IMG/VR virus record: IMGVR_UViG_3300025015_000015
Source of the DNA: a virus
Taxonomy: Duplodnaviria > Heunggongvirae > Uroviricota > Caudoviricetes
Strand: one strand, 5' to 3'
DNA: 64,000 nt
A model generated the notes under the pieces. It saw only the letters and a program-made list of their open reading frames with translations, was not told where the DNA came from and ran no database searches. Both the position numbers and the translations under genes were made by a program. Below, in pieces: positions 14,997 to 41,882 of this stretch; within the stretch, counting starts at the first letter, position 1, and the number at the start of each line of letters is the position of its first letter.

Positions 14997-15140
14997 TGAA
15001 AACACAAATTTGTACCAAATGTCATGAGGAAAAACCGGCTACAAATAAATTTTTTCCTATAAGAAGTGATGGAAGAAATGGTGGATTAAAGCGTTGGATT
15101 TATTGGAAGATTATTTATTATCAGCTATTAACTATTTAGA
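14997..15140 (+). pseudogene. 47-codon fragment of the HNH endonuclease N-terminal zinc-finger motif (MKTQICTKCHEEKPATNKFF...)
   Basis: Same K-x-x-ICTKC-x-x-EKP motif as the intact HNH at 48880-49629; no HNH catalytic domain follows. Confidence 0.35.
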
Positions 15141-15156: not shown

Positions 15157-15906
15157 ATGGGAATACTAATACCCAACGAAAAATCTTCAAGAATATCCGT
15201 TAGACATAGTATTCCATTAGCAAAGGATGTATCAGAAGTTTTAAATGGGAAACCTTGGGACGGTCATCGTTGTTTGATAATTGGAGGTGGAGCAAGTCTG
15301 GAACAAGTTCCACCTTCTATTGTTTCCGGTGAATTATCAATAGGAATCAATAAAGCATTTCAGAAGTATACCACAAAAATTAACTATTCAATGGATTCTG
15401 TATTCTACGAATTAGTAAGCAAAGTTCCAAGCAGTTACAATTCAGATCCGAATCAATATAAACTTCATGAAGATTGGATGCTTTATAAGGGAATGAAGTT
15501 ATTTTTAAGATTAAATAAGGAATATAAATTTGATCCATCAGTATTTTATATTAATTCATTAACTGACAAAAAGATATCCTACGACCTAAGAAAAGGTATT
15601 TATCCATCAAATAATTCCGGTGGTGGAGCTATTATGCTTGCCGTGGCTCTTGGGGCAAGAAAAATAGGTCTTTTGGGTTTTGATATGACGTTTCTAAGAG
15701 AAACTGGGAAAACTCATTTTCATAATGGGTATAAAAATCAAAACGTTGGTAAATTCCAAGATAAATTGGATAAGTTTAATAAGTTAATATGTGAATTGGC
15801 TCCTTTAATATATGCTGAAGGTGTTGAAGTGTATAATCTTAATTTGAACAGTAATTTAAATTGTTTTAAGAAGATTACTGTGGAAGAATTTTTTAAAATT
15901 TGTTAA
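15157..15906 (+). CDS. DUF115 / MptE-like (motility-accessory-factor-like) putative sugar transferase
   Basis: CLIIGGGASL ... GINKAF ... GGGAIMLAVALGARKIGLLGFDM pattern typical of the DUF115 Rossmann fold. Confidence 0.4.
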   Translation: MGILIPNEKSSRISVRHSIPLAKDVSEVLNGKPWDGHRCLIIGGGASLEQVPPSIVSGELSIGINKAFQKYTTKINYSMDSVFYELVSKVPSSYNSDPNQYKLHEDWMLYKGMKLFLRLNKEYKFDPSVFYINSLTDKKISYDLRKGIYPSNNSGGGAIMLAVALGARKIGLLGFDMTFLRETGKTHFHNGYKNQNVGKFQDKLDKFNKLICELAPLIYAEGVEVYNLNLNSNLNCFKKITVEEFFKIC

Positions 15907-16757
15907 TGGATTTTTCTAAGAATATGCATATACAATTCCCAATCAACAACGGACAACGCTATTACAAAATTCATTATGAGTTTGTACATAGAGTTTTTGA
16001 AGCTGGAAGTGCACAAATAGAATTAAAACAAATTCCAATGGTTAATACGTCTAATTTTAAATGTAAAATTGATGGAAAGGATGTTATTTTTTGTTTTTCA
16101 GATGATAATAACAGTTTTGGAATAAATGATCCCGAATTAAATAATATACCGGTATTTAAATTCCATTATGGACAAGGGAATTTATTTGGAAATAATGTAT
16201 TTCCGTTTTCTCCAATTAGTTTCCATAACTGGAATGAATATTATGAAATGGAAAAGGAAATAAATTATCAATGCTCAGGAGTGATATTAAATAATCAAAG
16301 AGCTTATGGTGGAGCAGTTGATAGAAGAAATAATGTTAGAGGTATTTTATTTAAAGAATTTGGAAGTAGGGTTGATTTCAGTTTAACTGATCAAAAAAGC
16401 TACTGGAGAAAAATAAATTCAGCATTAGTTTCAATACATGTTCCAGGATTTTGTAATAATATGTTGGATCGTGCTCAACTTCAGATGATGGCATTTGGAT
16501 GTTGTACAATATCCCCATATTTGTATGAAATTGTTCCATATGGTGCTGAAGATGGAAGTAAACCAATGTCATTACAACCATGGTTACACTATATTAGATG
16601 TAAAGATGATTATTCTGATCTTGTTGAAAAAATTAAATGGTGTGAATCAAACAAAAATAAATGTGTAGAAATTGGACAAAATGCAAAAAGAGCATTTCTT
16701 CACTTTCTTACTCCGTGGAATTTATGTAGAGACATAAATTCAATAGTTAATATATAA
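15906..16757 (+). CDS. hypothetical protein inside the glycan island
   Basis: ORF with ATG at 15906 overlapping the upstream stop (TAATG); no recognisable motif. Confidence 0.25.
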   Translation: MDFSKNMHIQFPINNGQRYYKIHYEFVHRVFEAGSAQIELKQIPMVNTSNFKCKIDGKDVIFCFSDDNNSFGINDPELNNIPVFKFHYGQGNLFGNNVFPFSPISFHNWNEYYEMEKEINYQCSGVILNNQRAYGGAVDRRNNVRGILFKEFGSRVDFSLTDQKSYWRKINSALVSIHVPGFCNNMLDRAQLQMMAFGCCTISPYLYEIVPYGAEDGSKPMSLQPWLHYIRCKDDYSDLVEKIKWCESNKNKCVEIGQNAKRAFLHFLTPWNLCRDINSIVNI

Positions 16758-16768
16758 AGGAAAATAAA

Positions 16769-17305
16769 TTGAAAAAATTATCCATTTTAATATGTTCTCT
16801 TCGCGAAAGGGAAAAGTCCCTTAACAAATTGTTAGAAGTTATTGAACCACAAAGGACCAGTGAAGTTGAAATTATACTTGATACCGATAATGGAGAAGTG
16901 ACTACAGGATTTAAACGTAATAGACTTCTTAATGCTGCTTTTGGAGAGTACATTTCATTTATTGATGATGATGATTTGGTATCCAATGATTACATAGTAA
17001 AAATTCTTAAAGCTATAGAAACTAGTCCTGACTGTTGTGGTATGGAAGGATTAATAACTTTTCAAAAGAAAAACATTACCCGTAAATTTATTCATACAAT
17101 ACAATGCTCAGAATGGTATGAGAAAGATCACATTTATTATAGATGTCCTAATCATCTGTCACCGGTTAAAAGAATTCATGCTCTTGCCACAAAATTTCCT
17201 GATATAACTGTCGGTGAAGATCATGATTATTCCACTAGGTTATTCCCACTTTTAAAAACAGAAGTTTATATTAATAATCCAATATATTATTATTTAACAA
17301 ATTGA
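16769..17305 (+). CDS. glycosyltransferase family 2 (GT-A fold)
   Basis: N-terminal LSILICSLRE... with a DxD-type motif FIDDDDLV. Confidence 0.55.
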   Translation: MKKLSILICSLREREKSLNKLLEVIEPQRTSEVEIILDTDNGEVTTGFKRNRLLNAAFGEYISFIDDDDLVSNDYIVKILKAIETSPDCCGMEGLITFQKKNITRKFIHTIQCSEWYEKDHIYYRCPNHLSPVKRIHALATKFPDITVGEDHDYSTRLFPLLKTEVYINNPIYYYLTN

Positions 17306-17315
17306 GGAAGGAAAG

Positions 17316-17996
17316 ATGGAAATATTGTTTAAATATCCAACAAGAGGAAGGCCACAATGGTTTAAACGAACATTGGAAATGTACTATTCATTATTAAGTG
17401 GTAAATTTAAGTACAAATTTTTGATAGCAATGGATATAGATGATGAATCAATGAATAATAATGAAATGAGGGAATTTCTTGATTCAAAATCTAATTTAAA
17501 GTATTATTATTCATATCATAAATCAAAAATTGAAGCTGTAAATAGTGGTATGGATATTTTCAGTGATTTTGATATCCTTGTTTTAGTTTCTGATGATATG
17601 ATTCCAATAGTAAAAGGATATGATCAAATAATTGTTGAAAGTATGAAAAAATATTTCCCGGATACTGATGGAGCATTACATTTCAACGATGGATTTCTTG
17701 GTAAAGACAAAACTATAACTCTAAGTATAATGGGAAGAATATTATATCAAAGAATTGGTTACATTTATCATCCTGATTATAAGAGTTTTTGGTGTGATAA
17801 TGAATTTACTGATGTTGTAACACAACTTGGAAAAGTTGTTTATTTTCCTAATGTTGTTATAAAACATGATTGGAAGGGATTTGAAAAAATAAATAAAGAT
17901 AAATTATACGTTAGAAATTCAGCAATGGGTAAAGGTGATGATGTGATATATGCAAAAAGAAGGGATTTAGGATTTCCTAAGGAAAGTATTCTATGA
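17316..17996 (+). CDS. glycosyltransferase-like protein (GT-A-like)
   Basis: Acidic motif LVLVSDDMIP after a Rossmann-like N-terminus; context. Confidence 0.3.
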   Translation: MEILFKYPTRGRPQWFKRTLEMYYSLLSGKFKYKFLIAMDIDDESMNNNEMREFLDSKSNLKYYYSYHKSKIEAVNSGMDIFSDFDILVLVSDDMIPIVKGYDQIIVESMKKYFPDTDGALHFNDGFLGKDKTITLSIMGRILYQRIGYIYHPDYKSFWCDNEFTDVVTQLGKVVYFPNVVIKHDWKGFEKINKDKLYVRNSAMGKGDDVIYAKRRDLGFPKESIL

Positions 17997-18766
17997 TTAA
18001 AAATGAAGTATTCGCAACTTGGTGCATCAGTAATAATATCGGAGATGCACTAAATGTGTGGATGATAAATAAGATATCAGGGTTTGATCCAATATATGTT
18101 GAGAAAAACGAATATTGTAATAAATATATGTGTATTGGATCAATTTTGAATTGGGCCGATAGGAATACTATTGTTTGGGGTGCGGGAATAGCCAATGCTA
18201 ATGATCCTGTTGATCCAAGAGCGGATATAAGAGCAGTTAGAGGTCCCATTAGTAGAAATAGAGCCATAGCCTGTGGAGCACAATGTCCTGAAGTATTTGG
18301 AGATCCATCTATTCTTCTTCCTAAAATGTTCAATCCAGAGGTAAAGAAGAAATATGAATTGGGAATAATACCTCACTATGTTGATCAATTTACCGTTCAT
18401 AATAGTTGGTTATCTAATTGTGGTGATATAAAAATAATAAATGTTTTTGATTCGGTTGAACAGTTTATACTACAAATAAAGTCTTGTAAAAAGATAATAT
18501 CCAGTTCTCTTCATGGATTAATTATATCCGATGCATACGGAATTCCATCAAAATGGTTCCAGGCTACAAACAAAATTGGTGGGGATGACACCAAATTTCA
18601 TGATTACTTTTTATCCGTTGGATATGAAATATACAAACCATTGAAGTTTTATGATTTGATAAATGAAAATGTTGACATTATATGTAAAGAAATAGAAGAA
18701 AGATATATAAAAATTGATCTAAAAGGATTGTTAGATGCGTGTCCTTTAATGAAAGGAATAAAATAA
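17993..18766 (+). CDS. polysaccharide pyruvyl transferase family protein
   Basis: N-terminal NNIGDAL motif (N-x-GD-x-L) typical of the PS_pyruv_trans family. Confidence 0.45.
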   Translation: MIKNEVFATWCISNNIGDALNVWMINKISGFDPIYVEKNEYCNKYMCIGSILNWADRNTIVWGAGIANANDPVDPRADIRAVRGPISRNRAIACGAQCPEVFGDPSILLPKMFNPEVKKKYELGIIPHYVDQFTVHNSWLSNCGDIKIINVFDSVEQFILQIKSCKKIISSSLHGLIISDAYGIPSKWFQATNKIGGDDTKFHDYFLSVGYEIYKPLKFYDLINENVDIICKEIEERYIKIDLKGLLDACPLMKGIK

Positions 18767-18767
18767 T

Positions 18768-19361
18768 ATGTATTCACAAAATGATGAAGAGAAGTGGATT
18801 ATGGATTTTTATGGTAGTTTTGTTGGTAAATTTCTGGATATTGGTGCTCATAATGGAATTGAGCTTAGTAATACTAGACGTCTTGTTGAATTGGGTTGGA
18901 ATGGAGTATGTATAGAACCGTCTCCAACTGTATTTGCACAACTTCTGAGGTTGTATGAACGAACTCCAACGGTAGCTGCTGTAAATTGTGCTATCGATAT
19001 TGAATCAAAGGTTAAGCTTTTTCTTGATAATGATGGAGGATATGTTTCAACTTTACTTAGAGAACATCAGATTAAAATGTCAACCCAACATGGAAGTTGT
19101 TACAGAGGAATGTATTTAAAGACTGCAACTATTAATGACATATTAGATACATTTGGTGTTAATTTTAACTTCATTAACATAGATATTGAAGGAATGGACT
19201 ATGAAATTCTTAAGACCATTCCTATCGGTTCAATGAAATCATTAAATATGATTTGTATGGAACAGTGTAATACTCAACAAGTTTTATTAGATTATGTTAG
19301 TCAATATGGATTTACCAAATTAATTGAAACAAGAGAAAATTTAATTGTTGTTAGGAAATAG
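18768..19361 (+). CDS. FkbM-family SAM methyltransferase
   Basis: FLDIGAHNGIELS motif typical of FkbM / Methyltransf_21. Confidence 0.5.
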   Translation: MYSQNDEEKWIMDFYGSFVGKFLDIGAHNGIELSNTRRLVELGWNGVCIEPSPTVFAQLLRLYERTPTVAAVNCAIDIESKVKLFLDNDGGYVSTLLREHQIKMSTQHGSCYRGMYLKTATINDILDTFGVNFNFINIDIEGMDYEILKTIPIGSMKSLNMICMEQCNTQQVLLDYVSQYGFTKLIETRENLIVVRK

Positions 19362-20193
19362 TATGAATAAAAATTTAATTTCGTATATTTTATTTGGTAG
19401 TGAACCAAGATATTGGAGTAATGTCCCGTATTTATTGGTGACCAATTCAGCAATTTATCAGGATTTTCATATGCGTTTTTATGTTCACAAAGAATCAACC
19501 GTAATTCCATGTTTTAATGTATTACAAGAAGTATCAAAGATTAATTTGAATGTTGAAATAGAAATAGTAGAGGATTCTTATGTTGGGACTAAATTAACAA
19601 CGTGGAGAGTAAAGCCATTGTGGGAAGATGATATTGATGTTCTTTTATGTAGAGATGTTGATTATGCTATAAATCTTCTTGAAAGAAAATCCGTAGAATA
19701 TTTTATTAGACAAAGTGATTGTATAGTTCATGGTATTAGAAGTTATCATTTACATACTGCTCCATATATGGCAGGTCTTTGTGGATTTAAAGTTAAAGAA
19801 GTTGCCAAGATGGTTAAACCTAAAGCATCAACGTTCTATCATTTCCTTAATTGGGGAACTAATAACGTTTCTTATTGTGCTGATTGGAGATGGGGGTGTG
19901 ATCAAGCTTTACTTAGGGACTTTTTGAATGTTGCCGGTCTTTACCCGGCAACAATGGATTGTCCACAGTATACCGCACCATTAAAAATCTATCAATTTAA
20001 TGCTAAAACTATTACTCCTAATTTGTATGATAAAATTTCAATGAGAAATTGTGATGGAAATGCCTTAGTATTTAGTAATTCAATTGCTCCAAGTTTTACC
20101 GGTCAACCTTGGTCATGTGATTCTAATAGTTTAAGGACTTTATGTGGTATGGTTAACAATGCAACTTCGGATATTGTGAAGAAATATATTTAA
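19345..20193 (+). CDS. hypothetical protein (possible nucleotide-sugar transferase)
   Basis: ORF only; sits inside the glycan island. Confidence 0.2.
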   Translation: MLLGNSMNKNLISYILFGSEPRYWSNVPYLLVTNSAIYQDFHMRFYVHKESTVIPCFNVLQEVSKINLNVEIEIVEDSYVGTKLTTWRVKPLWEDDIDVLLCRDVDYAINLLERKSVEYFIRQSDCIVHGIRSYHLHTAPYMAGLCGFKVKEVAKMVKPKASTFYHFLNWGTNNVSYCADWRWGCDQALLRDFLNVAGLYPATMDCPQYTAPLKIYQFNAKTITPNLYDKISMRNCDGNALVFSNSIAPSFTGQPWSCDSNSLRTLCGMVNNATSDIVKKYI

Positions 20194-20206
20194 TTGGAAT
20201 TAAATA

Positions 20207-20803
20207 ATGAATCTTGATATCATAGTTGTAGCAAATCATCATAGAAAAGCCTTAATACTAGATCATTTGAATGGTATTACACATAGGGTTAGTTATACTA
20301 ATGATTATGTGTTGCCGGAATCATTTAAACCTGAAGTTCTTGGTTTGGTTCAACCATGGTGTCATTTAGGTGTATTAAGATGTTTCAAAGGTCATCAAGA
20401 TGCAATTAGAATGTGTGATAAGGATAATGTTTTATTATTTGAAGACGATGCCGTACCAAATAATCCTGATTGGATTAATATAGTTGCTGATTCTATTAGT
20501 TTATTAAATACTTTTGAAATGGTTTCATTTCATGGTAGATGTTATGATCGTTCTTTATATAAGGAATTTAAAGAAATACGGCCAGGAAATAATTTCTTAT
20601 ATATTCCAAATAAACAAGGAAGAATATGTGTACATGGTGCTTTAGCATATATGCTAAATAGGAGAATATTTGAAAAGGTATTATCTTGGAATTATGTTGG
20701 AGACCCAATTGATACTCTATTGGTAAATGCTCTTAATTTTTGTTTGTTAGAAAAAAGTCCTTTCAATCATGATAGATCAGAGGGTTCTTTACTTGACGTC
20801 TAA
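20207..20803 (+). CDS. glycosyltransferase family 25-like (LPS-type beta-glycosyltransferase) candidate
   Basis: Roughly 200 aa with an FEDDAV motif and a GT25-like Cys/His stretch; weak. Confidence 0.3.
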   Translation: MNLDIIVVANHHRKALILDHLNGITHRVSYTNDYVLPESFKPEVLGLVQPWCHLGVLRCFKGHQDAIRMCDKDNVLLFEDDAVPNNPDWINIVADSISLLNTFEMVSFHGRCYDRSLYKEFKEIRPGNNFLYIPNKQGRICVHGALAYMLNRRIFEKVLSWNYVGDPIDTLLVNALNFCLLEKSPFNHDRSEGSLLDV

Positions 20804-21527
20804 AAGAATAATACAATTTACACAATTAGGTAAGTTCGGAAGATTTGGAAATCAGATATTCCAGTATATTTTTGCTCGTGCTTATGCTGAAAAATATAAT
20901 GCAGAACTTGAGTTACCACATTGGATTGGTGAAAAGATATTTAAAAATGTTAGTCATAAACAACCGTCAGTTAAACTTCCTACAACCCAGGTTGATGTTG
21001 TTAAATTTGGTGATGTTAATATAGATCTACTTGGTTATTTCCAGAAGAAGGAATTCATAGATATCCTCTCCAAGAAAAAGATAATGGAATGGCTTCAATT
21101 TCAAGATAGATGGATTGGTCCTGGAAATAATATTACTACTAAAATAGTAGCTCATTTACGAAGAGGGGATTATGTAACTTTATACCCAAATGTCTTTTGT
21201 ATAGTATCAAAAGATTCGTATTTTAAAGCTTGTAATAAATTTAATATTAAAAAAGAAAATATTATTTGGGTATCTGAAGAAAATCAATTGTATTATTCTT
21301 ATCTTGAATCTGATTTGCAATTTATGCCTGATTTTAATTTAATGAAAAATTCTAATATCTTATTAAGATCTAATTCAACATTCGGTTTTTGGGCTGGATT
21401 TTTTAATAAAAATAAAGTTTATAGTCCTGTTGTTGGTGGGTTAAAAGGAATGAATGACGTTGATTTTGTTGAAGGAAATTTTTCTTCAATTGTGGATGTA
21501 AATAGAGATTTTATTTTTAAGGAATAA
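20769..21527 (+). CDS. alpha-1,2-fucosyltransferase-like (GT11) protein
   Basis: N-terminal GRFGNQIFQYIFARAYA matches the GT11 signature (G-x-LGNQ-x-FQYAFA). Confidence 0.55.
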   Translation: MIDQRVLYLTSKRIIQFTQLGKFGRFGNQIFQYIFARAYAEKYNAELELPHWIGEKIFKNVSHKQPSVKLPTTQVDVVKFGDVNIDLLGYFQKKEFIDILSKKKIMEWLQFQDRWIGPGNNITTKIVAHLRRGDYVTLYPNVFCIVSKDSYFKACNKFNIKKENIIWVSEENQLYYSYLESDLQFMPDFNLMKNSNILLRSNSTFGFWAGFFNKNKVYSPVVGGLKGMNDVDFVEGNFSSIVDVNRDFIFKE

Positions 21528-21529
21528 AT

Positions 21530-22336
21530 ATGGCTAGGCATGTTGTTTTGGGTTCAAAAGGATTTATTGGAAGATATTTATCCGATTGGTTGAAGAGCCA
21601 GGGGAAGCAAGTTATTGAATATGATATTAAAAATGGTCCAAGGCAAGATTGCCGTGTTGTTGATTTGACTTTAAATAAAGATGATATAGTTTATTTTCTA
21701 GCATGGGAAGTTGGTGGAGCTAAATATTTATACAATCCTGATACACAATTAGATCAAATTCATAGAAATATTGATTTGATGAATAATGTATTTCGTCAAC
21801 TTGAAGTAAGTAAATGTAAATTTATTTTTATTTCTTCTCAATTATCTGGAACGAATTCTGCTTATGGCTCATTAAAGCATTTTGGAGAAATTTGGACTTC
21901 TCAATTACCAAATGGTAGATGTATTAGACTTTGGAATGTTTATGGAGCTTATGAGACTCTTTCAGAAAAGAGTCATGTTATTTCAGATTTTATCCATCAA
22001 GCACTTACTAATAATAAAATAGAATTATTAACAACCGGAGATGAAAAAAGACAATTTATTCACATAGATGATGTTTGTTCTGCTATTGCAGCATCCTTTT
22101 GTAATACGTATCATGAGACAATATATGATGTTACATCATTTGAATGGATTAAAATTATTGATGTTGCCAGAATAATTCAGAAATATTTAAATTGTGGTAT
22201 CTTTTATGATGATAAAATTGGTACTACTCAGAATGTTCTAATAAAGGGGAAATTACCAAATTGGTATCCGAAAGTTAAGTTGGAACGAGGTATTGGAGAT
22301 ACCATTAGACTTTATAAAGAGAAATTGGAGGTTTAA
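21530..22336 (+). CDS. NAD-dependent sugar epimerase/reductase (short SDR-type; GDP-6-deoxyhexose synthase/reductase candidate)
   Basis: N-terminal VVLGSKGFIGRYL Rossmann GxxGxxG motif. Confidence 0.5.
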   Translation: MARHVVLGSKGFIGRYLSDWLKSQGKQVIEYDIKNGPRQDCRVVDLTLNKDDIVYFLAWEVGGAKYLYNPDTQLDQIHRNIDLMNNVFRQLEVSKCKFIFISSQLSGTNSAYGSLKHFGEIWTSQLPNGRCIRLWNVYGAYETLSEKSHVISDFIHQALTNNKIELLTTGDEKRQFIHIDDVCSAIAASFCNTYHETIYDVTSFEWIKIIDVARIIQKYLNCGIFYDDKIGTTQNVLIKGKLPNWYPKVKLERGIGDTIRLYKEKLEV

Positions 22337-22337
22337 A

Positions 22338-22862
22338 ATGGACTTTAGAACTGACTTATTGAATAAATTTGGGGATGCTTCTTTACAAGTTCCAGAACTT
22401 AGCTTTGTTATATCCAATGAAGCTGAATTTTATAAGATCATGGAAAAGATAGCATATAAACCAAAGGTTGTTCTTGAAACTGGGACTGCTTCGGGGTGTT
22501 CTGCATTGTTGTTGGCACAATATGCGTATGAAATTGTAACATTTGATGTTAAAGAAGTCCAAATGAAATATGATATTTGGTTACATTACGGTGTAAAAGA
22601 TAGAATTACTGCACATGTAATTAAGGATACCTCTGAAATTCCGGCTTTGATGACAAAAGAATTTGATTTTGCATTCATTGATGGAGATCATTCCTACGAA
22701 GGATGTTCAAAAGATATAGATATAGCTGAAAAATGTGGTAGAATTTTATTCCATGATGTTTATCATGAGCCTATTCAAAAGGCATATAAGGAATTAATGG
22801 CAAGAAAGGGTGGAAATTGGATTCAAGTCGGTGGAACTTTTGGGTATTGGAGTAATAAGTAG
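22338..22862 (+). CDS. class I SAM-dependent methyltransferase (O-methyltransferase-like)
   Basis: VVLETGTASGCSALLLA SAM-binding motif and FIDGDHSYEGCSKD; start taken at 22338 after GGAGG. Confidence 0.5.
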   Translation: MDFRTDLLNKFGDASLQVPELSFVISNEAEFYKIMEKIAYKPKVVLETGTASGCSALLLAQYAYEIVTFDVKEVQMKYDIWLHYGVKDRITAHVIKDTSEIPALMTKEFDFAFIDGDHSYEGCSKDIDIAEKCGRILFHDVYHEPIQKAYKELMARKGGNWIQVGGTFGYWSNK

Positions 22863-22863
22863 T

Positions 22864-24135
22864 ATGGATAAGAAATGTATATCATGTGGATCTAAACTTG
22901 AGGATGATATCGTAACCATAGGAAATCAATACCCAAGTGCTATTTTCTCTTCTGAAAGGAATAAAGTTGAAGGTGAAATAGTACCATCAAGCCTTAATGT
23001 TACACGATGTTCAAATGAAACTTGTGGATTGGTTCAGCTTGTAAATAAGTATGATTTGCAATATGTATTTGATCATTATCCATATGAGAGTAATTCAACT
23101 GCAACAATGAAACAAATTTTACAAGATGTAGTTAATAGTACCAAATCTATCGTTTCTTTAACTGAAGAGGATGTAGTTTTGGACATAGGCGGAAATGATG
23201 GAACATTGCTTGAGTTTATAGATCAATTAGTTCGTGCTCGTGTTAACATTGATGCCGCTGCTGGCGTTAATCAGTTAATATCCTCTTCTGATTATCATTA
23301 TGTTCATTCTAAGTTTAAAGCATCGGCATATAAAGATTTAAAATTACCAAATCCAAAATTGATCTTTAGCATAGCCATGTTTTATCATCTTAATGATCCT
23401 GTTACCTTCTGTAAAGAAGTAAAGGAAATAATGTCAGATGATTCAGTTTGGGTTATTCAGCTTACCTATCTTGGAACAATGTTGCGTGATAATATTTTTG
23501 ATAATATTGTTCATGAACATGCAGCTTACTATTCATTAAAATCCTTGGAATCAATGCTATTAAATATCGGACTTTACATTGTAGATGCCAAGATAGTTAA
23601 AAGTTATGGCGGTAGTCTAAGGGTGTTTGTCGTTAAAGATCCAAGCAAATTTTCAAAGGATCAAATATACAAAAACACGGTGGATGTTGTACAATTTGAA
23701 CTTGATAATAAAACTAATACGATTGAAGAATTGAAAGCTTTTAATAGTCGTACACAATCACTTAAACACACAATTAATGATATAATTGACCATATTGTAT
23801 ACGAACATGGTCCTATGTGGGGATTTGGGGCAAGCACTAAAGGAAATATGATTTTACAATTTTTGGGAATTAAAGAAGATAAAATGTCAATCATTCTTGA
23901 TAATAATAGAAAGAAAATGGGTAAATGGACCACAGGATCATCCATTCCTATTGTAATTGAATCGGTATATCTTAGATCTATTATTGGACATAAGTATTTA
24001 TTTGTTTTACCGTATTACTATACGGATGCTTTTGTTAAAATTATTGAGAAATATCTTCATGTTGGAAATAAAGTAAGTCTATTAATTCCATTACCATATC
24101 CGTATTTTATAGAGGTAAAAGGACTTAATGAATAA
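22864..24135 (+). CDS. NDP-sugar C-methyltransferase-like protein with an N-terminal zinc ribbon
   Basis: MDKKCISCGSKL...VTIGNQYPSA resembles the zinc-binding N-terminus of sugar C3-methyltransferases, followed by a class I methyltransferase core (DIGGNDGTLL). Confidence 0.45.
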   Translation: MDKKCISCGSKLEDDIVTIGNQYPSAIFSSERNKVEGEIVPSSLNVTRCSNETCGLVQLVNKYDLQYVFDHYPYESNSTATMKQILQDVVNSTKSIVSLTEEDVVLDIGGNDGTLLEFIDQLVRARVNIDAAAGVNQLISSSDYHYVHSKFKASAYKDLKLPNPKLIFSIAMFYHLNDPVTFCKEVKEIMSDDSVWVIQLTYLGTMLRDNIFDNIVHEHAAYYSLKSLESMLLNIGLYIVDAKIVKSYGGSLRVFVVKDPSKFSKDQIYKNTVDVVQFELDNKTNTIEELKAFNSRTQSLKHTINDIIDHIVYEHGPMWGFGASTKGNMILQFLGIKEDKMSIILDNNRKKMGKWTTGSSIPIVIESVYLRSIIGHKYLFVLPYYYTDAFVKIIEKYLHVGNKVSLLIPLPYPYFIEVKGLNE

Positions 24136-24592
24136 ATTAGGAAATATTGATATTTTAGATGCATCATGTAATATAAGTACAGTTCAAGATGGACGTGGTG
24201 CTATATTTACCTGGTTACCAAGTGAACCAATTGTTGAATTTAATATGCTTTATTTTCATCCTAATAAAATTCGTGGAAATCATTATCATCCGGAATTCAC
24301 TGAATATTTCCTAATAGTGGAAGGATCAGTAGTTATGGTTACTAAAGATCCGGTTACTAAAAAGGAAATTAATATGCATGCAAGTCGTGGAACATGTTTT
24401 AGAACTCCACCGAATACTCCACATGCTATACATGCAATTACTCCATCAATTTGTGTTGCCTGTCTTACTAAACAATGGGATAGATGTAAAAATCCAATTA
24501 TACGTGAAGACTTAATTCCATTTGATAAAGAATATAATGAAAATAAGTTGAAATGTGGTCCTTCAATAACCAGTGGTAAAATAAATGAATAA
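24128..24592 (+). CDS. cupin-fold sugar 3,4-ketoisomerase (FdtA/WxcM-like)
   Basis: RGNHYHPEFTEYFLIVEGS cupin motif typical of the WxcM/FdtA family. Confidence 0.45.
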   Translation: MNKLGNIDILDASCNISTVQDGRGAIFTWLPSEPIVEFNMLYFHPNKIRGNHYHPEFTEYFLIVEGSVVMVTKDPVTKKEINMHASRGTCFRTPPNTPHAIHAITPSICVACLTKQWDRCKNPIIREDLIPFDKEYNENKLKCGPSITSGKINE

Positions 24593-25301
24593 AAAGAATG
24601 TAGCCGTAATCGGTGCTAAAGGGTTTGTTGGTTCAAATATTGCCAATGCAGTAATTAAAAATCCTGAATATAACTTAATTCCAATAACAAGAGATGATCC
24701 TGTAGAAGAAATGATTTCACGTGCAGACATAATTATTCATTCAGCTAATCCTGCCAAACGATGGAAAGCTGAAAGGAATACGATGAATGACTTTCTTGAA
24801 ACTGTAGAAAAGACCGATAGACTGTTTTTGTTGGCTAGGGGAAAACCTTTTGTATTAATTTCAAGCTTATCCTGTCGTACCCAACTTGATACTAATTATG
24901 GTCGTAATCGTAGGGCTTGTGAATCAATAGTTTTGGCAGGCAGAAATTCCCTTGTTGTTAGATTGGGACCTATGTTTGGTGGAAATCGTAAAGAAGATAT
25001 GCTCCATGATATTTTATCCGGTAAAATAGTGCATATTTCAGAAGAAACCAAATATGCATATGCTGATGTTTCCTGGATTGGTTGGAAAATAGTAAGTTTG
25101 TTGAAAACATATTATTTTCCAAGTTCAATAATTGAATTAGGAGCACATAATTATGTTCGTTTAGGTAATATTCGCGATATATTCAAAACTTCAGCAATAT
25201 TTGATGGAAAAGATGAAACGCAAATTCCCGAATGTTGTACTGATGGTCCTGATGCCAACGATGTGTTTGAATATGCTGAAAAGGAGATGGAAAGCTTATG
25301 A
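24585..25301 (+). CDS. NAD(P)-binding 4-keto-sugar reductase/epimerase (RmlD-like)
   Basis: VAVIGAKGFVGSNI Rossmann motif. Confidence 0.45.
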   Translation: MNKKNVAVIGAKGFVGSNIANAVIKNPEYNLIPITRDDPVEEMISRADIIIHSANPAKRWKAERNTMNDFLETVEKTDRLFLLARGKPFVLISSLSCRTQLDTNYGRNRRACESIVLAGRNSLVVRLGPMFGGNRKEDMLHDILSGKIVHISEETKYAYADVSWIGWKIVSLLKTYYFPSSIIELGAHNYVRLGNIRDIFKTSAIFDGKDETQIPECCTDGPDANDVFEYAEKEMESL

Positions 25302-25870
25302 TGAACATGACATTTAATCCTGAATATTGGGATGGTTTAGCTAAAATAAAAAATTGGAATGGTGTGTGTTATGGTTTTCATACTGAAGAAGAGTTTTACG
25401 GTTTTACTGAACCAATCGAAGATTTGAAAGACAATATGGTATTTTTGGATTTTGGTTGTGGTCCAGGTAGGATTGTAAAGACAGTTGCTCCACATGTTAA
25501 AGAATATATTGGTGTTGATGTTTCAGAAGGTCTTATTGAATTAGCAAGAGAACACCATAAGCAATATAAGAATGTTAGATTTGTTAAATGTAGTGGTACT
25601 GATTTATCAGTCGTAGAGGATAATTCGGTTGATTATTTATACGAACGTCTTGTTTTGATTCATGTTTTTAAGGAATGGATTATTAAATATGTAGCTGAAT
25701 TCTTAAGAGTTCTTAAGTCGGATGGAATACTTTGCATTCCGGATTTCCCAAGAGCAGACGTTAGTACAAATGGATTTACACTTGAAGAAATGAATGAAAT
25801 GCTAAAGGATTTTAGAGTTGTTGAAATTGATACCAGCGGAACTACATATAACGTTAAATGTGTAAAATGA
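25298..25870 (+). CDS. class I SAM-dependent methyltransferase
   Basis: VFLDFGCGPGRIV motif I. Confidence 0.55.
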   Translation: MMNMTFNPEYWDGLAKIKNWNGVCYGFHTEEEFYGFTEPIEDLKDNMVFLDFGCGPGRIVKTVAPHVKEYIGVDVSEGLIELAREHHKQYKNVRFVKCSGTDLSVVEDNSVDYLYERLVLIHVFKEWIIKYVAEFLRVLKSDGILCIPDFPRADVSTNGFTLEEMNEMLKDFRVVEIDTSGTTYNVKCVK

Positions 25871-26538
25871 AAACATTAACAATTAAAATTTATTATGGTG
25901 GTCTTGGAGATCATTTGCTACATTCTCATCTACCTAAATTAGCTAAACAGAAATTTGAATATGACAAAGTATTTATATCAAATTATTCCAATTACAACAA
26001 TCCTAATACAAAAAGGTTGGTGTGGGAGTATAATCCATTTATTGACGGATTCAATAATGAAGATCATGATTATCCAAAATTTGGTTCCGTTCCTCCTGGA
26101 GCAAACATTCTTGATGGAGTTTCAATGTTTTATGGACTAGATGATGGAGAACGATATCGTGAACCTGAGATTTATTATAGACCTAGAATAATTCCTGAAA
26201 TGCTTAATGCTGTAGTTTTTGAACCTAATCATTCAAATGCTTATGGTATTCCAACGATAGAACAATATGAAGAATACTTTAAGATGAATAATATTAATAT
26301 AACTCACCAAATGAAGTTATTACATGGATCTACTAAATCAATCAGGACGGAAATAACTCCAAGCGGTTTGGAAGAGCTTTGTGACGTTATTTATTCATGT
26401 AAATTACTATATTGTTTTACGTCTGGTATAGCAACTCTTTCTGCTGCACTTTGTAAACCAACAACTGTGTTATTTGTCGATGGAATAAATCTAATGTTTC
26501 ATCATTCTAAATTGCATACATATATTAAGGTTATTTAA
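25867..26538 (+). CDS. hypothetical protein, GT9 (heptosyltransferase)-like GGLGD motif
   Basis: IYYGGLGDHLL at the N-terminus; weak. Confidence 0.25.
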   Translation: MKTLTIKIYYGGLGDHLLHSHLPKLAKQKFEYDKVFISNYSNYNNPNTKRLVWEYNPFIDGFNNEDHDYPKFGSVPPGANILDGVSMFYGLDDGERYREPEIYYRPRIIPEMLNAVVFEPNHSNAYGIPTIEQYEEYFKMNNINITHQMKLLHGSTKSIRTEITPSGLEELCDVIYSCKLLYCFTSGIATLSAALCKPTTVLFVDGINLMFHHSKLHTYIKVI

Positions 26539-26790
26539 ATGTCCGAAACTATTGGAAATTTATTTGATAAATTAACTATTGTTAATCTTAAAATTTGGAG
26601 ACAAGAAGATATAAAACGATCTTCAAATGATGATCATGAAATTGCCGAAGCTACTAGAAAAACTAATGTATTAAATCAACAAAGAAATGATTTAGTACAG
26701 GAAATCGATGAGCTTATAAATGGATTAATAAATGGAACAAAGAAAATGAAAACTTATAACCAAGGTGGTACTAAGAGTTATGGAAATTAA
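26539..26790 (+). CDS. small coiled-coil protein
   Basis: ORF only. Confidence 0.2.
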   Translation: MSETIGNLFDKLTIVNLKIWRQEDIKRSSNDDHEIAEATRKTNVLNQQRNDLVQEIDELINGLINGTKKMKTYNQGGTKSYGN

Positions 26791-27646
26791 TATGAACGTA
26801 CCAACAATAGGTTGTATGATTTGGGATGGTAATTATTCTGTAATGAATGATACAGATTTTAGGTATGGAAAAAGATTAAAGTATTTTGAATATAATTGGA
26901 TTAAACCGGAACAGGAAAAGATTGTAGTATTTAGTGATTATACTATACCACAAGGAGCAGAACCAAGATTTAAACATATTCCACATAAAGTAGCATGGTT
27001 AATTGAAAGTCCAGCGGTTTTTGCTCGTTTTGGTGGTCATGCTGCTGCTTTAAAATGGCTTCTTGAACATTTGGATACGTTTTCAGTTATTGCTACTTGT
27101 GATGATTCTCTAATTGAAAAATATCCAAATAAAATGGCATTTGTTCCATTTGGTGGTGTAATAGTTCTTCCACATGAAACTCGAATATACCATAAAACAA
27201 AATTATGTTCATTAACGGCTGGTCAACTCTATTCTCCAAGAGATTTAATTTATAACACATATAAAGACAAAGGAATAATTGATTTTCTGGGTAAAATAGT
27301 AAATAGACCATATAACTCTGTTGTTGATGGATTTAAAGATTATATGTACCACATATCAGTTTCAAGTTGTAAGGAAAATAGATATTTTTCATCAAATATA
27401 ACTGATGCTTTTGCCTGTGGTACAGTACCAATTTGGTGGGGATGTTCAAAAATAGGTGAATTTTTTGATATGGATGGAATAATAACATTTAATAATCTTG
27501 ATGAATTAGATTCAATATTAAAGAAAATTGGACCTGAAGATTATAATAGAAGACTTGGTGCAATACAAAACAACACAAAACTTGTTGAAAAATATAGAAC
27601 TCCTGATAATACTTTGTGGGAAAATGTTTTATCAAAATTATATTAA
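26780..27646 (+). CDS. hypothetical protein in the glycan island (start uncertain, 26765/26780/26792)
   Basis: ORF only. Confidence 0.25.
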   Translation: MEINMNVPTIGCMIWDGNYSVMNDTDFRYGKRLKYFEYNWIKPEQEKIVVFSDYTIPQGAEPRFKHIPHKVAWLIESPAVFARFGGHAAALKWLLEHLDTFSVIATCDDSLIEKYPNKMAFVPFGGVIVLPHETRIYHKTKLCSLTAGQLYSPRDLIYNTYKDKGIIDFLGKIVNRPYNSVVDGFKDYMYHISVSSCKENRYFSSNITDAFACGTVPIWWGCSKIGEFFDMDGIITFNNLDELDSILKKIGPEDYNRRLGAIQNNTKLVEKYRTPDNTLWENVLSKLY

Positions 27647-27656
27647 GGATGTAATA

Positions 27657-28337
27657 ATGGGAAAATCGGATTTACTAGATGGTGAAATTAAAGTAATACA
27701 GGAACATATTTATTCTGGAAATATTGTGTTTGATGTTGGGGCTTATGTTGGAGAATGGTCAAATGAAGTATTGAAAAGATTTCCTAATGTTATTATTCAT
27801 CAATTTGAACCATCACCAGAATCATTTAAAAATTTACTTAAAAATTCTCAAAATAATATAAATCCAAAACAAATAATAAGAAATAATATAGTAATTTCTA
27901 ATAAGAATCATCCGGTAACTTTTTATTATTATCAGAATTGTCCGGTTTTATCAACTACTTATAGAAGAAATGAAAAGGTGGAAAAAGAGTTTAATTTGGA
28001 AGTTAGAAATAAAGAAGTAAATTCAACTACCATTGATATATATTGTGGTTATAAAGGGATACAACATATAAATTTTCTTAAAATAGATACTGAAGGATGT
28101 GAATTTGATGTTATTAGAGGTTCAGAAGGATTACTTAGAAATAAATCAATAAATTATATACAATTTGAATACGGTGGATGTTTTATTGATTCCAAAACAA
28201 CACTAAAAGAAGTTTTTGATTACTTAAAATCTTTTGAATATGGTGTATTCAAAATTCTACCGGAAGGATTAACCGAAATAACTAATTTTACTCCTGATTT
28301 GGAAAATTATGAATATAGTAATTTCTTAGCCTATTAA
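27657..28337 (+). CDS. FkbM-family SAM methyltransferase
   Basis: [11 protein letters not shown] motif; start taken at 27657 after AAGGA rather than the overlapping 27528 start. Confidence 0.5.
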
Positions 28338-28348
28338 AAGGATATATT

Positions 28349-29350
28349 ATGAAAACAGCTTTTATTACTGGTGTAACCGGCCAAGACGGATCGTATCTTG
28401 CTGAATTTCTTCTTAAGAAAGGATATATAGTTTACGGCTTAATGCGAAGAAGTTCTTCTTTTAATACAGGAAGGTTAGATAAAATTTACGAGGATCCACA
28501 TAATTCAAGTGATTTTCATCTTGTTTATGGAGATTTGACTGATGGTGGTTGTCTGCATAATATATTGAATGAAATAAAACCTGATGAAGTTTATAATCTT
28601 GCAGCTATGAGCCATGTTAAAGTAAGTTTTGATATTCCTGTTTATACTGTAGATGTTGGCGGTTTGGGAACTTTGAAATTGCTTGAAGCAATAAGAATTC
28701 TTGGAATTCCAGTTAAGTTTTATCAGGCATCCAGTAGCGAAATGTTTGGAAAAGTGGCAGAAATTCCACAAAGCGAAAAAACACCATTTCATCCTAGAAG
28801 TCCTTATGCATGTGCAAAGGTATATAGTTATTGGCAAACAATAAACTATAGAGAAGCATATGATATGTTTGCTTGTAATGGAATACTTTTTAATCATACT
28901 GGACCACGTCGCGGAGAAACATTTGTTTCTAGAAAGATAACCCGTGCCGCCACAAGAATCAAGGAAGGATTACAAAATAAATTATTCCTTGGAAATCTTG
29001 ATGCTAAACGGGATTGGGGTTTTGCGGGTGATTATGTAGAAGCCATGTGGTTAATGCTTCAGCAGAACAAGCCTGATGATTATGTAATTGCAACCGGTGA
29101 AACACATTCAATAAAAGAATTTCTTGACAGAGTTTTTGAATTGTTGGATATGAACTGGCATAAATATGTTGAAATTGATCCAGTTTATTTTAGACCAACA
29201 GAGGTTGATTTATTGCTTGGGGATCCAACTAAAGCTAACACTATTCTTAATTGGAAACCAAAGGTTAATTTCAAAGAATTAGTAAAATTAATGGTGGAAT
29301 CAGATTGGATTTTAGCAAAACGGGAAAAATTAATAAAAGGGATTAAATAA
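28349..29350 (+). CDS. gmd: GDP-mannose 4,6-dehydratase
   Basis: [26 protein letters not shown]...[11 protein letters not shown]... ASSSE...YACAK; canonical GMD N-terminus and SDR catalytic motifs. Confidence 0.85.
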
Positions 29351-29988
29351 TGGATTGGTTGGTAATAGCATATTATACTATAGGAACAATTTACGAAAAT
29401 ATAGTTGATAATCTTTGTAGAACATTAAATCAATTTAATGTTCCAAATAAAATTGTTGCGGTTAATGATTTAGGATCCTGGCAGAAGAATACACAATATA
29501 AACCAAAATTTATAAAACAGATGCTTGAAGAAAATAAAAATTTTAATTTAATTTATGTTGACGCTGATGCAGAATTTTTAGAATATCCTCATTATTTTAA
29601 TAATTTATCACAAGATTCAAGCATTAATATATCAGTTTTAGAATTAGATCATAATAAATTTGGAAGAAAAGCAAGAGGGTTGGAAATTCTTAGTGGAACA
29701 ATTTTTTTAAAAAATAACGAAACAACAATGTCAATTGTTAATGAATGGATAAAAGGTTGTGAATTAAATCCAGACAAATGGGACCAAGTTATATTATCAA
29801 TCGTTCTTAAGAAATACGGATTTCATAATCTTCCGGAAAAATACTGTGTAATATTTGATTATATGGTTTCAGTTCCAAATCCAGTAATAAAACATTTTCA
29901 AGCTTCAAGACAAGTTCGTTTCACAGAAAGACAGAAGAATAAAGTTGTTAACGTTCCGGCTGGTCATATAAGAATCAAACATGTGTAA
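29350..29988 (+). CDS. hypothetical protein (possible nucleotide-diphospho-sugar transferase, DADAEF motif)
   Basis: ORF with a DxD-like motif YVDADAEF. Confidence 0.25.
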   Translation: MDWLVIAYYTIGTIYENIVDNLCRTLNQFNVPNKIVAVNDLGSWQKNTQYKPKFIKQMLEENKNFNLIYVDADAEFLEYPHYFNNLSQDSSINISVLELDHNKFGRKARGLEILSGTIFLKNNETTMSIVNEWIKGCELNPDKWDQVILSIVLKKYGFHNLPEKYCVIFDYMVSVPNPVIKHFQASRQVRFTERQKNKVVNVPAGHIRIKHV

Positions 29989-34723: not shown

Positions 34724-34726
34724 ATA

Positions 34727-36339: not shown

Positions 36340-36341
36340 AA

Positions 36342-41864: not shown

Positions 41865-41882
41865 TAATATTTTCCTTTAATA

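Follow-up and report, generated by a model that had tools for sequence, protein, structure and literature searches.

The present work concerns a block of carbohydrate-related genes, hereafter the island, carried by an uncultured tailed phage known from the IMG/VR record IMGVR_UViG_3300025015_000015, of which a stretch of 64,000 nucleotides, hereafter the window, was analysed. The island occupies positions 15157–29988 (14.8 kb) and consists of 21 genes, all on the plus strand, with overlaps or gaps of at most 13 bases. Its limits coincide with gene limits—the first ATG at 15157 and the last stop codon at 29988—and the co-directional glycan block of about 15 kb delimited in a first-pass annotation of the same DNA has therefore been retained. 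All 21 reading frames are intact, a Shine-Dalgarno-like motif precedes 15 of them, and the G+C content of the island (0.29–0.32) equals that of the remainder of the window. The genes encode a GDP-mannose 4,6-dehydratase (GMD), two short-chain dehydrogenases/reductases (SDRs), a cupin, a zinc-ribbon sugar C-methyltransferase, four other methyltransferases, a polysaccharide pyruvyl transferase, a DUF4254 protein and eight glycosyltransferase-like proteins, the last of these covering six or more families (Table 1). Profile, structure-database or predicted-fold matches support glycan chemistry for 19 of the 21 genes, and chance cannot explain so many adjacent genes with glycan-related matches.

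Table 1 Genes of the island and, below them, other features of the window. Identity and dN/dS (ratio of non-synonymous to synonymous substitution rates) refer to the orthologue in the sister phage described in the text; aa, amino acids; SAM, S-adenosylmethionine; ORF, open reading frame; pLDDT, predicted local distance difference test
Position	Strand	Feature	Supporting match	Identity	dN/dS
15157–15906	+	249-aa putative glycosyltransferase, MptE-like/DUF115-type (Maf/GT42 sialyltransferase-like)	PHROG 4603 ('sialyltransferase'), E=3.1e-21	74%	0.19
15906–16757	+	283-aa protein, weakly GT90/CAP10-like	PF05686, E=1.9e-4, 21 bits (cut-off 24), 40-aa stretch only	67%	0.27
16769–17305	+	178-aa GT2-family glycosyltransferase, TTG start	PF00535, 5.6e-7, above cut-off		0.16
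17316–17996	+	226-aa putative glycosyltransferase without Pfam family	PHROG 14945 (glycosyltransferase), 2.5e-16		0.18
17993–18766	+	257-aa polysaccharide pyruvyl transferase	PF04230, 5.1e-14		0.23
18768–19361	+	197-aa FkbM-family methyltransferase 1	PF05050, 9.8e-11; TIGR01444, 3.5e-14	89%	0.08
19363–20193	+	276-aa conserved protein, possible GT-A transferase	no Pfam, NCBIfam, PHROG or PDB match	69%	
20207–20803	+	198-aa conserved protein, no family match	no match in profile or PDB searches	88%	0.10
20769–21527	+	252-aa GT11 (alpha-1,2-fucosyltransferase family) glycosyltransferase	PF01531, 7.4e-10		0.26
21530–22336	+	268-aa SDR, candidate NDP-4-keto-6-deoxyhexose reductase	PF01370, 6.5e-20		
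22338–22862	+	174-aa class I SAM methyltransferase (Methyltransf_24/O-methyltransferase type)	PF13578, 1.3e-8; PF01596, 1.5e-5	90%	0.05
22831–24135	+	434-aa NDP-hexose C-methyltransferase, N-terminal zinc ribbon	PF08484, 8.2e-24; PF13489, 6.8e-9; PF08421, 8.5e-5		
24128–24592	+	154-aa metal-binding cupin (CapF C-terminal/WbuC/FdtA-like), putative sugar-nucleotide epimerase or isomerase	PF14667, 2.2e-8		
24585–25301	+	238-aa CapF-N-terminal-like SDR, putative 4-ketoreductase, YxxxR variant	PF01370, 1.8e-5		
25298–25870	+	190-aa class I SAM methyltransferase (Methyltransf_11/25)	PF08241, 1.9e-18		0.13
25867–26538	+	223-aa compact GT-B protein, GT9-like (heptosyltransferase-like) predicted fold	no profile match; AlphaFold pLDDT 96.2		
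26539–26790	+	83-aa DUF4254 protein	PF14063, 4.2e-13		0.09
26780–27646	+	288-aa GT-B protein, GT10-like (alpha-1,3-fucosyltransferase-like) predicted fold	model pLDDT 93.6		
27657–28337	+	226-aa FkbM-family methyltransferase 2	PF05050, 8.9e-20; TIGR01444, 1.1e-25	58%	0.39
28349–29350	+	333-aa GMD	PF16363, E=6.7e-142, profile positions 1–332 of 332	84%	0.12
29350–29988	+	212-aa nucleotide-diphospho-sugar transferase (Nucleotid_trans)	PF03407, 4.4e-8		0.31
3086–3183	+	short ORF opening with a zinc-ribbon-like peptide			
7650–10211	+	853-aa Ig-domain protein		52%	0.43
13968–14996	+	PurZ-like gene	PHROG 1211; PDB matches in the text	80%	
14996–15139	+	short ORF opening with a zinc-ribbon-like peptide			
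30003–31082	+	g30003, first gene after the island	PHROG 7339, labelled DNA repair exonuclease		
31082–~31150	+	short ORF opening with a zinc-ribbon-like peptide			
31198–31824	+	SPFH/Band-7 protein			
34652–34811 and 36341–36415	-	three tRNA genes: Ile-TAT, Leu-TAA, Lys-TTT			
41265–41864	-	199-aa protein with four hydrophobic segments			
41880–42146	-	MazZ-like homologue	dGTP_diPhyd_N		
56485–60126	-	PolA-type polymerase			

Relatives of the phage were found by a homologue search with the neighbouring PurZ gene. In a sister phage (64-kb contig; loci L109 and L112), the PurZ of which is 80% identical, the island genes stand in identical order, and all 21 shared genes exhibit amino-acid identities of 58–90% with dN/dS values of 0.05–0.39 at a synonymous divergence (dS) of 0.5–1.2, the fastest-evolving island gene being that of FkbM methyltransferase 2. 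Among the neighbours, the gp6, PurZ and fibre genes have dN/dS values of 0.11–0.25 and the Ig-domain protein alone a higher one. The island is maintained by purifying selection; since its ratios resemble those of most neighbouring baseplate and fibre genes, the island genes are not relics, a possibility that the first-pass annotation had left standing. The sister phage carries in addition a 126-aa gene after the first island gene and a 314-aa SDR resembling GDP-L-fucose synthase (Fcl). A third contig (L113) keeps the core island genes at 43–78% identity and also has extra methyltransferases. In two distant relatives lacking the island (L110 and L111; PurZ 61% identical; contigs of ~102 kb), of the kind that had been suggested for comparison, the distance from PurZ to the orthologue of g30003 (60–61% identical) is ~4 kb, and the genes in between—MazZ-like, ClpP, N6 methyltransferase and others—are unrelated to the island. 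Because unrelated genes fill the same slot there, the glycan block is accessory and lies in a variable slot between two conserved neighbours. The 16 loci (contig segments) retrieved from several groundwater samples agree at 100% identity over the island, with scaffold N-gaps and one deletion as the only exceptions; the lone variant (L019, JGI 3300025009) has lost 27 bp in frame at ~22356–22382, near the 5' end of the Methyltransf_24 gene. Loci so nearly identical carry no within-population information.

Sugar-nucleotide enzymes and the C-methyltransferase cassette

The GMD, located where it had been annotated and matching its profile over the full length, is the sole 4,6-dehydratase revealed in the island by profile searches and is 55–59% identical to the GMDs of cyanophages and other records (55–58% for the cyanophages). 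Neither a nucleotidyltransferase (NTP_transferase) nor a PfkB sugar kinase was found by these searches in any island gene, in agreement with the earlier statement that rmlA and rmlB are lacking, and genes for GDP-mannose synthesis were not found in the island either; with no kinase or nucleotidyltransferase of the island to make it, the GDP-mannose must come from the host. The description of the block as a complete toolkit has thus been given up, the more so as no Fcl is encoded in the window. The Fcl-like SDR of the sister phage follows its GMD directly (L112, 12602–13546), and the gene contents suggest that the glycans of the two phages may differ in one sugar.

Both short SDRs of the first-pass annotation were recovered with PF01370. 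The longer one, with 268 residues, has readable GxxGxxG and YxxxK motifs and matches Fcl, RmlB and UXS weakly, the Fcl match (NF047922, 1.7e-9) being far under the cut-off; similar SDRs adjoin C-methyltransferase homologues on the 5' side in IMG/VR loci, and a radical SAM gene takes its position in L113. The zinc-ribbon C-methyltransferase, likewise named correctly, has the three-part architecture of the TylC3 type—zinc ribbon, class I SAM domain and C-terminal Methyltransf_14—with the four zinc-ribbon cysteines kept (CxxC...Cx4C), and it matches over nearly the full length the structures of TylC3 (4RV9, 2.4e-29) as well as KijD1 and TcaB9 (~1e-22, including 5T64 and 3NDI). With regard to its substrate, the gene context, i.e. 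the adjacency of GMD, points to a GDP-4-keto-6-deoxyhexose, which the enzyme would methylate at C-3. The cupin, with a readable metal motif (HxH...E plus a distal H), had been called FdtA-like; the FdtA profile (1.7e-5) does exceed its Pfam cut-off and Cupin_1 and Cupin_2 match as well, but PF14667, also above cut-off, is the best profile, so that the protein is closer to the C-terminal domain of CapF, and it is paired with an SDR resembling the N-terminal one. This 238-aa SDR matches NF047837 (WbcJ) with residues 2–120 and Cap5F in the PDB (6.8e-5), and it belongs to a family in which YGxxR replaces the catalytic Tyr-x3-Lys in nine of nine aligned members, phage and cellular.

A scan of 185,579 species genomes yielded nine homologues of the C-methyltransferase at 55–66% identity, on contigs of metagenome-assembled genomes (MAGs) assigned to Omnitrophota, Thermodesulfovibrionales, Methanoregula, Verrucomicrobia, Alpha- and Gammaproteobacteria, Lentimicrobiaceae and others. 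Wherever the flank was long enough, in seven of these loci, the C-methyltransferase is followed by the cupin (70–84% identical) and then by the 238-aa SDR (48–60%), and the contigs with the three genes side by side come from about seven phyla; in L026 a Methyltransf_11 gene, a 70% identical copy, also follows the cassette. The cupin family is a tight one (249 matches, 68–82% identity among the 120 listed), bearing generic automatic labels only in the databases searched. Three cassette neighbourhoods were inspected (L104–L106), all of them being cellular polysaccharide loci, and that of L106 contains rmlABCD, an ABC transporter, a GMD-like gene, several transferases and a Bac_transf priming enzyme. 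The idea that the MAG homologues are misbinned relatives of the island phage was rejected, their flanks being free of phage genes and cellular in look. Judged by these sequence comparisons, the trio of C-methyltransferase, cupin and SDR is a mobile cassette common to the phage island and to bacterial and archaeal polysaccharide loci, and it has the look of a hitherto undescribed path, widely spread by transfer, to a branched deoxysugar.

Elsewhere, GMD lies directly 5' of the C-methyltransferase homologues in L028, L034, L036 and L045, and within ~1 kb on the 5' side in L037 and L092. Because of this adjacency, and because GMD is the only 4,6-dehydratase of the island, the sequence data support, as a reasonable reading, a route to GDP-linked 6-deoxyhexoses that includes C- and O-methylation as well as pyruvylation, and the GDP-linked precursor presumed in the first-pass annotation has gained in strength. 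In such a route, host GDP-mannose would be converted to GDP-4-keto-6-deoxymannose by the phage GMD. One branch would then lead through the zinc-ribbon C-methyltransferase, the CapF-C-like cupin acting as epimerase or isomerase, and the CapF-N-like reductase to a GDP-3-C-methyl-6-deoxyhexose, and the other through the 268-aa SDR to a plain GDP-6-deoxyhexose of the rhamnose, 6-deoxytalose or fucose type. An oligosaccharide would be assembled stepwise by about eight to ten soluble glycosyltransferases—MptE/DUF115-like, GT90-like, GT2, the phage glycosyltransferase family, GT11, GT9-like, GT10-like and PF03407, perhaps also the two unassigned proteins—and would be O-methylated by two FkbM and two class I methyltransferases, with a ketal added by the pyruvyl transferase. 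This biosynthetic part of the explanation is considered highly probable; beyond the enzyme families themselves, we infer that GDP is the carrier, where methylation takes place, in which order the steps follow and what the acceptor is.

Transferases and the carrier phage

Profile annotation of each reading frame left most of the earlier domain assignments in place. The GT2, GT11 and pyruvyl transferase families were recovered (PF00535, PF01531 and PF04230), as were the two FkbM and two class I methyltransferases, all four with profile matches. The GT2 protein also matches PHROG 8858/14775 glycosyltransferases (~1e-29) and contains a DDDD motif, and the 226-aa putative glycosyltransferase is ~24–26% identical to annotated glycosyltransferases of Streptomyces phages. 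Concerning the first gene, its DUF115 Maf-like assignment is indirectly supported by PHROG 4603, whereas the Pfam MptE-like match is weak here (0.019) but, in the sister orthologue, spans almost the whole protein at 3.8e-6; its homologues occur in jumbo phages and Yuavirus-type phages. Sequence searches of the PDB with this protein and with the two unassigned ones (19363–20193 and 20207–20803) returned noise only. The label GT25-like, given to the second unassigned protein, had to be dropped: that family (PF01755) appears at E=0.083 over 30 residues in the L113 orthologue only, and the window protein has no such match at E<=10. Relaxed Pfam searches of the unassigned ORFs and their orthologues gave no family for either of the two proteins. 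DxD-like motifs are kept in all orthologues of both; the former is 50% identical to its L113 orthologue, with an invariant CRDxDY motif, and the latter has a conserved EDDA(V/I)PN motif.

The GT9-like assignment, taken here to refer to the gene at 25867–26538, finds no profile match and stands on the predicted structure, the model being closest to GT9 structures in the PDB—3TOV, WaaF, WaaC and TibC (E=5e-6 to 1e-4; template-modelling (TM) score ~0.6)—which are ~100 residues longer than the phage protein. Its family comprises 436 representatives, often as a domain fused to GT2 or FkbM, and PF01075 matches three of 39 members, possibly via other domains. Several homologues (P0263, P0265, P0266, P0275 and others) are one domain of proteins of 1,000–2,090 aa. 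Three assignments go beyond the first-pass annotation, namely the PF03407 transferase, the DUF4254 protein and the GT10-like fold. The model of the last resembles best FUT9 and the FucT from Helicobacter pylori (~1e-7, TM 0.6); at the sequence level the H. pylori FucT in the PDB is matched at E=0.01 and PF00852 at 0.08, and two homologues carry PF00852. The PF03407 transferase, from a family which we take to be a GT77-like GT-A one, contains a DADAE motif. In each of the three islands (window, L112 and L113), DUF4254 is flanked by the GT9-like and GT10-like genes, and in the IMG/VR loci L002 (3223–3447) and L003 (11269–11448) it lies directly 3' of C-methyltransferase homologues; this fixed place together with the adjacency suggests that it has a part in the pathway. 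Uncultured tailed phages and giant viruses commonly encode GT9-like, FkbM and Fut-like proteins.

The carrier is a tailed phage, as had been stated: profile searches place baseplate, portal, clamp loader, UvsX-like and polymerase genes around the island. On the 5' side, and on the same strand, there are gp25-like and gp6-like baseplate proteins, the Ig-domain protein and fibre-like proteins; on the 3' side, on the other strand, there are the portal, protease, UvsX-like, SbcCD-like, clamp loader, sliding clamp, primase and PolA-type polymerase genes. The direct upstream neighbour is not the tail-fibre module, as originally described, but the PurZ-like gene, the best PDB matches of which are the PurZ entries of Vibrio phage phiVC8 (2e-39), followed by S-2L PurZ (3e-28), with archaeal PurA behind at 4e-21. 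Adenine is probably replaced by 2-aminoadenine in the genome of the island phage. The MazZ-like homologue and the PolA-type polymerase are both encoded on the minus strand. The PurZ relatives in metagenomes form a clade of ~45 sequences, 48–79% identical, some of them on ~100-kb contigs. The phage contigs, one of 104,356 bp and others of up to 116 kb, originate from aquifer groundwater metagenomes (PRJNA268031 and related samples) and indicate a genome of at least 104–116 kb, distant from reference phages (gp6 ~25% identical; polymerase at most 26%). Neither the island nor the cupin–SDR pair has a DNA match among 50,697 phage records (megablast/blastn); a scan of IMG/VR with PurZ gave no match, and the one with the C-methyltransferase gave only relatives of 28–34% identity.

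As for transcription, promoter and terminator scans and the T4 late-promoter motif TATAAATA showed no enrichment over shuffles. A -10-like element upstream of PurZ is conserved in the window phage and its sister, and in the latter PurZ is separated from the first island gene by a 4-base gap; co-transcription of the island with PurZ is therefore possible.

Several further features were recorded around the island. The SPFH/Band-7 gene, which follows g30003, is also kept in the sister phage, and the 199-aa protein lies beside the portal and MazZ-like genes. The three tRNAs all read A/T-ending codons, consistent with a genome of ~31% G+C. The Ig-domain protein evolves fastest of the genes compared with the sister phage, which fits a role in host recognition. 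Three short ORFs open with the zinc-ribbon-like peptide K(T/I)C(T/S)(K/R)C..(E)KP, two of them sitting at the PurZ/island and g30003/SPFH junctions; since the sister phage has, among its fibre genes, intact HNH endonuclease genes (149 and 216 aa) with the same N-terminus, the three look like decayed homing endonucleases. The two junction peptides (14996–15139 and ~31082–31150) were considered as marks of the island boundaries and rejected as such, the sister island being without them and the intact HNH genes standing elsewhere.

Possible acceptors of the glycan

No island protein contains a 19-residue window reaching a hydropathy of 1.6, and the related islands of L109, L112 and L113 encode no hydrophobic segment either (threshold 1.8). 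Profile searches of the island found no priming polyprenyl-phosphate transferase, flippase, polymerase, ligase or transporter, and a large polytopic protein is absent from the entire window, its only polytopic ORF being the 199-aa one. With all the enzymes predicted to be cytoplasmic and no export machinery, the chain would grow on an acceptor that the cytoplasm already contains, and this acceptor would be the phage's own virion proteins, i.e. fibres, the Ig-domain protein or capsid. A virion target is favoured because the island follows the baseplate/fibre block on the same strand and because of the size of the investment, and the fact that TibC, among the nearest GT9 folds, glycosylates a protein has been counted in its favour. 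On balance, virion proteins are tentatively preferred as acceptor to a host envelope glycan such as the lipid A-core, albeit at somewhat less than even odds. Taken as a whole, the reading would be that a phage with a probable 2-aminoadenine genome runs a cytoplasmic glycosylation line, placing on its fibres or capsid an O-methylated, C-branched and pyruvylated oligosaccharide made via the cassette of C-methyltransferase, cupin and YxxxR reductase; a probability of about 0.35 is assigned to it. Homologues of single island transferases in cultured phages were also tried as a clue to the target and discarded, one lying between head genes of a Yuavirus and another among replication genes of Streptomyces phages.

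A number of observations pull in the other direction. On the biosynthetic side, the GDP carrier is made less certain by the dehydratase slot of L113, which is only 25% identical to GMD, and by the dehydratase beside the cassette in several MAG loci, at 25–35%; the window phage, without the Fcl-like gene of its sister, has nevertheless kept the GT10-like and GT11-like genes. The TylC3-type enzymes characterized so far use dTDP-sugars. As to the genomic setting, a nucleotide-metabolism gene, PurZ, stands between the fibre genes and the island, and the island may be transcribed with this replication-phase gene, not with the late structural genes. Concerning the transferases, GT9, GT10, GT11 and GT42/DUF115-like (MptE-like) proteins represent the classic set for the outer core of lipooligosaccharides and, joined by GT2, a typical core set of lipopolysaccharides (LPS) in general. 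Such outer-core enzymes are soluble or peripheral and need no flippase or polymerase of their own, so that the absence of export genes cannot separate virion from host targets. Published readings of comparable clusters in cyanophages and jumbo phages also favour modification of the host surface (PMC7824862). The transferase set and these readings are compatible with remodelling of the host envelope, a possibility of real substance that we regard as slightly less likely than a virion target: on the inner side of the membrane, soluble transferases would add sugars to a host acceptor—lipid A-core of the lipooligosaccharide outer-core type, or an undecaprenyl-linked, S-layer or wall-glycan intermediate—and MsbA/Lpt or a host flippase would export the product, the methylated surface then blocking superinfection or the adsorption of progeny to infected cells and debris. 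The origin of the cassette in cellular surface-polysaccharide loci and the possible co-transcription with PurZ fit this well. What speaks against it is that a priming transferase, flippase, polymerase, ligase and ABC transporter are absent from the island and the rest of the window alike, that no integrase was seen in the 64 kb, so that the benefit would have to accrue within the lytic cycle, and that 21 genes, ~13–14% of a genome of at least 104–116 kb, are a large investment. For seroconversion by temperate phages, one to three genes suffice.

The other explanations are assigned much less weight. The product might be a free or lipid-linked glycoconjugate, a glycosylated small molecule or a modified non-structural protein of phage or host, as natural-product sugar pathways are typified by C- and O-methylated deoxysugars, FkbM-type methyltransferases and TylC3-like enzymes, a radical SAM enzyme lies inside the L113 island, and a second cyanophage cluster has been proposed to serve secondary metabolism (PMC7824862). 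It is, however, improbable, given that genes forming a polyketide, a non-ribosomal peptide or another aglycone are missing, that at least eight transferases point to an oligosaccharide, not to one or two sugars on an aglycone, and that the nearest cassettes reside in polysaccharide loci, not in natural-product clusters. Glycosylation of hydroxymethylated bases in the phage DNA, known from T4 and the systems of Pyle et al., would agree with a DNA chemistry that is apparently modified already (PurZ beside the island and a MazZ-like gene in the window), with the ability of phage glycosyltransferases to build di- and trisaccharides on 5-hydroxymethylcytosine (bioRxiv 10.1101/2023.12.21.572611) and with the ~1 kDa thymidine adduct reported for phage YerA41. 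Clusters of this kind are, however, defined by a dioxygenase or hydroxymethylase gene beside the transferase (bioRxiv 10.1101/2023.12.21.572611), and no TET/5mYOX dioxygenase, thymidylate-synthase-like hydroxymethylase or C5-cytosine methyltransferase is found in the island, its flanks or ~40 other window proteins, ~40 kb of the genome lying outside the window; the GT9-, GT10-, GT11- and PF03407-like transferases and the pyruvyl transferase are, moreover, glycoconjugate enzymes, and DNA hypermodification can thus be held very unlikely. Finally, close cellular homologues of the cassette and of several other genes, and the HNH endonuclease remnants at 14996–15139 and 31082–~31150, might indicate recently captured cellular DNA without a role in the phage. 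This is effectively refuted by the intact frames and phage-like base composition, by the same content and order in the sister at a dS of ~1 with the low dN/dS values given above, and by the complete identity across the 16 groundwater loci.

Relation to known systems

Large glycan clusters of lytic phages have been recorded over two decades, and none with an experimentally assigned acceptor was found. The island is suited to this question, being compact, limited to soluble enzymes, available in three diverged versions and located near the fibre genes, whose products are candidate acceptors. Autonomous glycosylation of virions has so far been known from giant viruses and, in simple form, mycobacteriophages; should virion proteins indeed be the target, it would be extended to a full pathway from sugar nucleotide to glycan in a tailed phage, with a bearing on particle stability, host recognition and evasion of immunity or predators. 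Whatever the acceptor, the cassette can be tested with four recombinant enzymes, and its unusually conserved cupin is ~70–84% identical in bacterial and archaeal contigs.

Phage clusters combining SDRs, cupins, methyltransferases and many transferases are already known (PMC7824862), above all as clusters for 'LPS/capsular polysaccharide modification' in T4-like cyanophages (P-SSM2 and others) and jumbo phages (Iyer et al. 2021, PMC7824862). The island resembles them in the co-directional arrangement in a tailed phage (up to ~15 or more genes there), in the repertoire—one to four SDR epimerase/dehydratase paralogues, a cupin, O-methyltransferases and several glycosyltransferase families there; GMD, two SDRs and one cupin here—and in the sporadic and polymorphic occurrence among related phages. 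It differs in its carrier, a PurZ-encoding groundwater phage of ~104–116 kb with core genes at most 26% identical to those of reference phages, in lacking the sugar kinase or nucleotidyltransferase of the 'complete' clusters, and in having the C-methyltransferase–cupin–SDR cassette, the pyruvyl transferase and transferases of the GT9, GT10 and PF03407 types. It should be pointed out that the function of the cyanophage clusters is itself a proposal and that they have been set beside the island by gene content. The unusual traits of the island are the sugar C-methyltransferase, the CapF-like cassette, the pyruvyl transferase, the five methyltransferases and the probable 2-aminoadenine genome of the carrier.

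Homologues of the C-methyltransferase were found in only seven of the 50,697 phage records. The succession of GMD, C-methyltransferase and Fcl is already present in a cyanophage, the T4-like Synechococcus phage DSL-LC02 (OR032571.1, L114, 91.9–102.4 kb; metagenome-assembled), in a cluster of 12 genes ordered as GMD, C-methyltransferase, GDP-fucose synthase, transferases, FkbM and more transferases. The likeness to the island thus extends to a co-directional series of GMD, a C-methyltransferase homologue (31% identical), an SDR, FkbM and about eight transferases. DSL-LC02, however, has an epimerase-reductase of the Fcl/GMER type instead of the split CapF-like cupin and SDR, and neither a pyruvyl transferase nor DUF4254. 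Its C-methyltransferase is annotated just as 'methyltransferase domain-containing protein', and the describing paper mentions only GMD and Fcl.

Among viruses with glycosylated particles, the chlorovirus PBCV-1 (capsid N-glycosylation) and the fibril clusters of Megavirinae (PMC5408694, PMC9614988, PMC10117803) share with the island a virus-encoded GMD and other sugar-nucleotide enzymes, soluble glycosyltransferases without membrane anchors and methyltransferases decorating deoxysugars. The chlorovirus glycosyltransferases, in particular, are soluble and cytoplasmic, beside a virus-encoded GMD (PMC5408694), and relatives of the GT9-like fold are present in giant viruses. In contrast to the island, known from its genes alone, the capsid or fibril glycans have been demonstrated there; no orthology beyond shared families is detectable, and the giant-virus genes are often fused into multidomain proteins, whereas those of the island are separate. 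The mycobacteriophage systems differ from the island as well, the latter having 21 genes including sugar-nucleotide tailoring and no identified glycosylated C-terminal extension. They reportedly comprise a few transferases that use host sugar nucleotides. According to the account in a citing paper, the phages glycosylate capsid and tail-tube proteins of their own with these transferases (Freeman et al. 2023, cited in PMC12619734).

With respect to cellular pathways, O-antigen and capsule loci of the Wzx/Wzy or ABC-transporter type contain the priming enzyme and export genes that the island lacks, as illustrated by the cellular locus L106 with its Bac_transf and ABC_tran genes. The GDP route proposed in silico for virenose (6-deoxy-3-C-methyl-gulose) of the Coxiella burnetii O-antigen (PMC3539893) runs, like the one outlined here, from GDP-mannose through GMD and a TylC3-like C-3 methyltransferase to an epimerase/reductase, which is, however, of the GMER type and not a cupin with a YxxxR SDR, and it feeds a conventional O-antigen. 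The closest parallel to the latter pair is offered by the 3-epimerase/4-reductase CapF from Staphylococcus aureus and WbjC (PDB 2ZKL, 3ST7), the N-terminal domain of which corresponds to the 238-aa SDR and the C-terminal one to the cupin (PF14667; NF047837 positions 250–337 for CapF/WbcJ). The similarity is weak (E=7e-5), and the YxxxK lysine is replaced by arginine in the island SDR family. Unlike CapF, the island has two overlapping genes with the cupin first, an arrangement common to every cassette seen, and the substrate would presumably be a GDP-linked C-methyl keto-sugar in place of a UDP-2-acetamido sugar.

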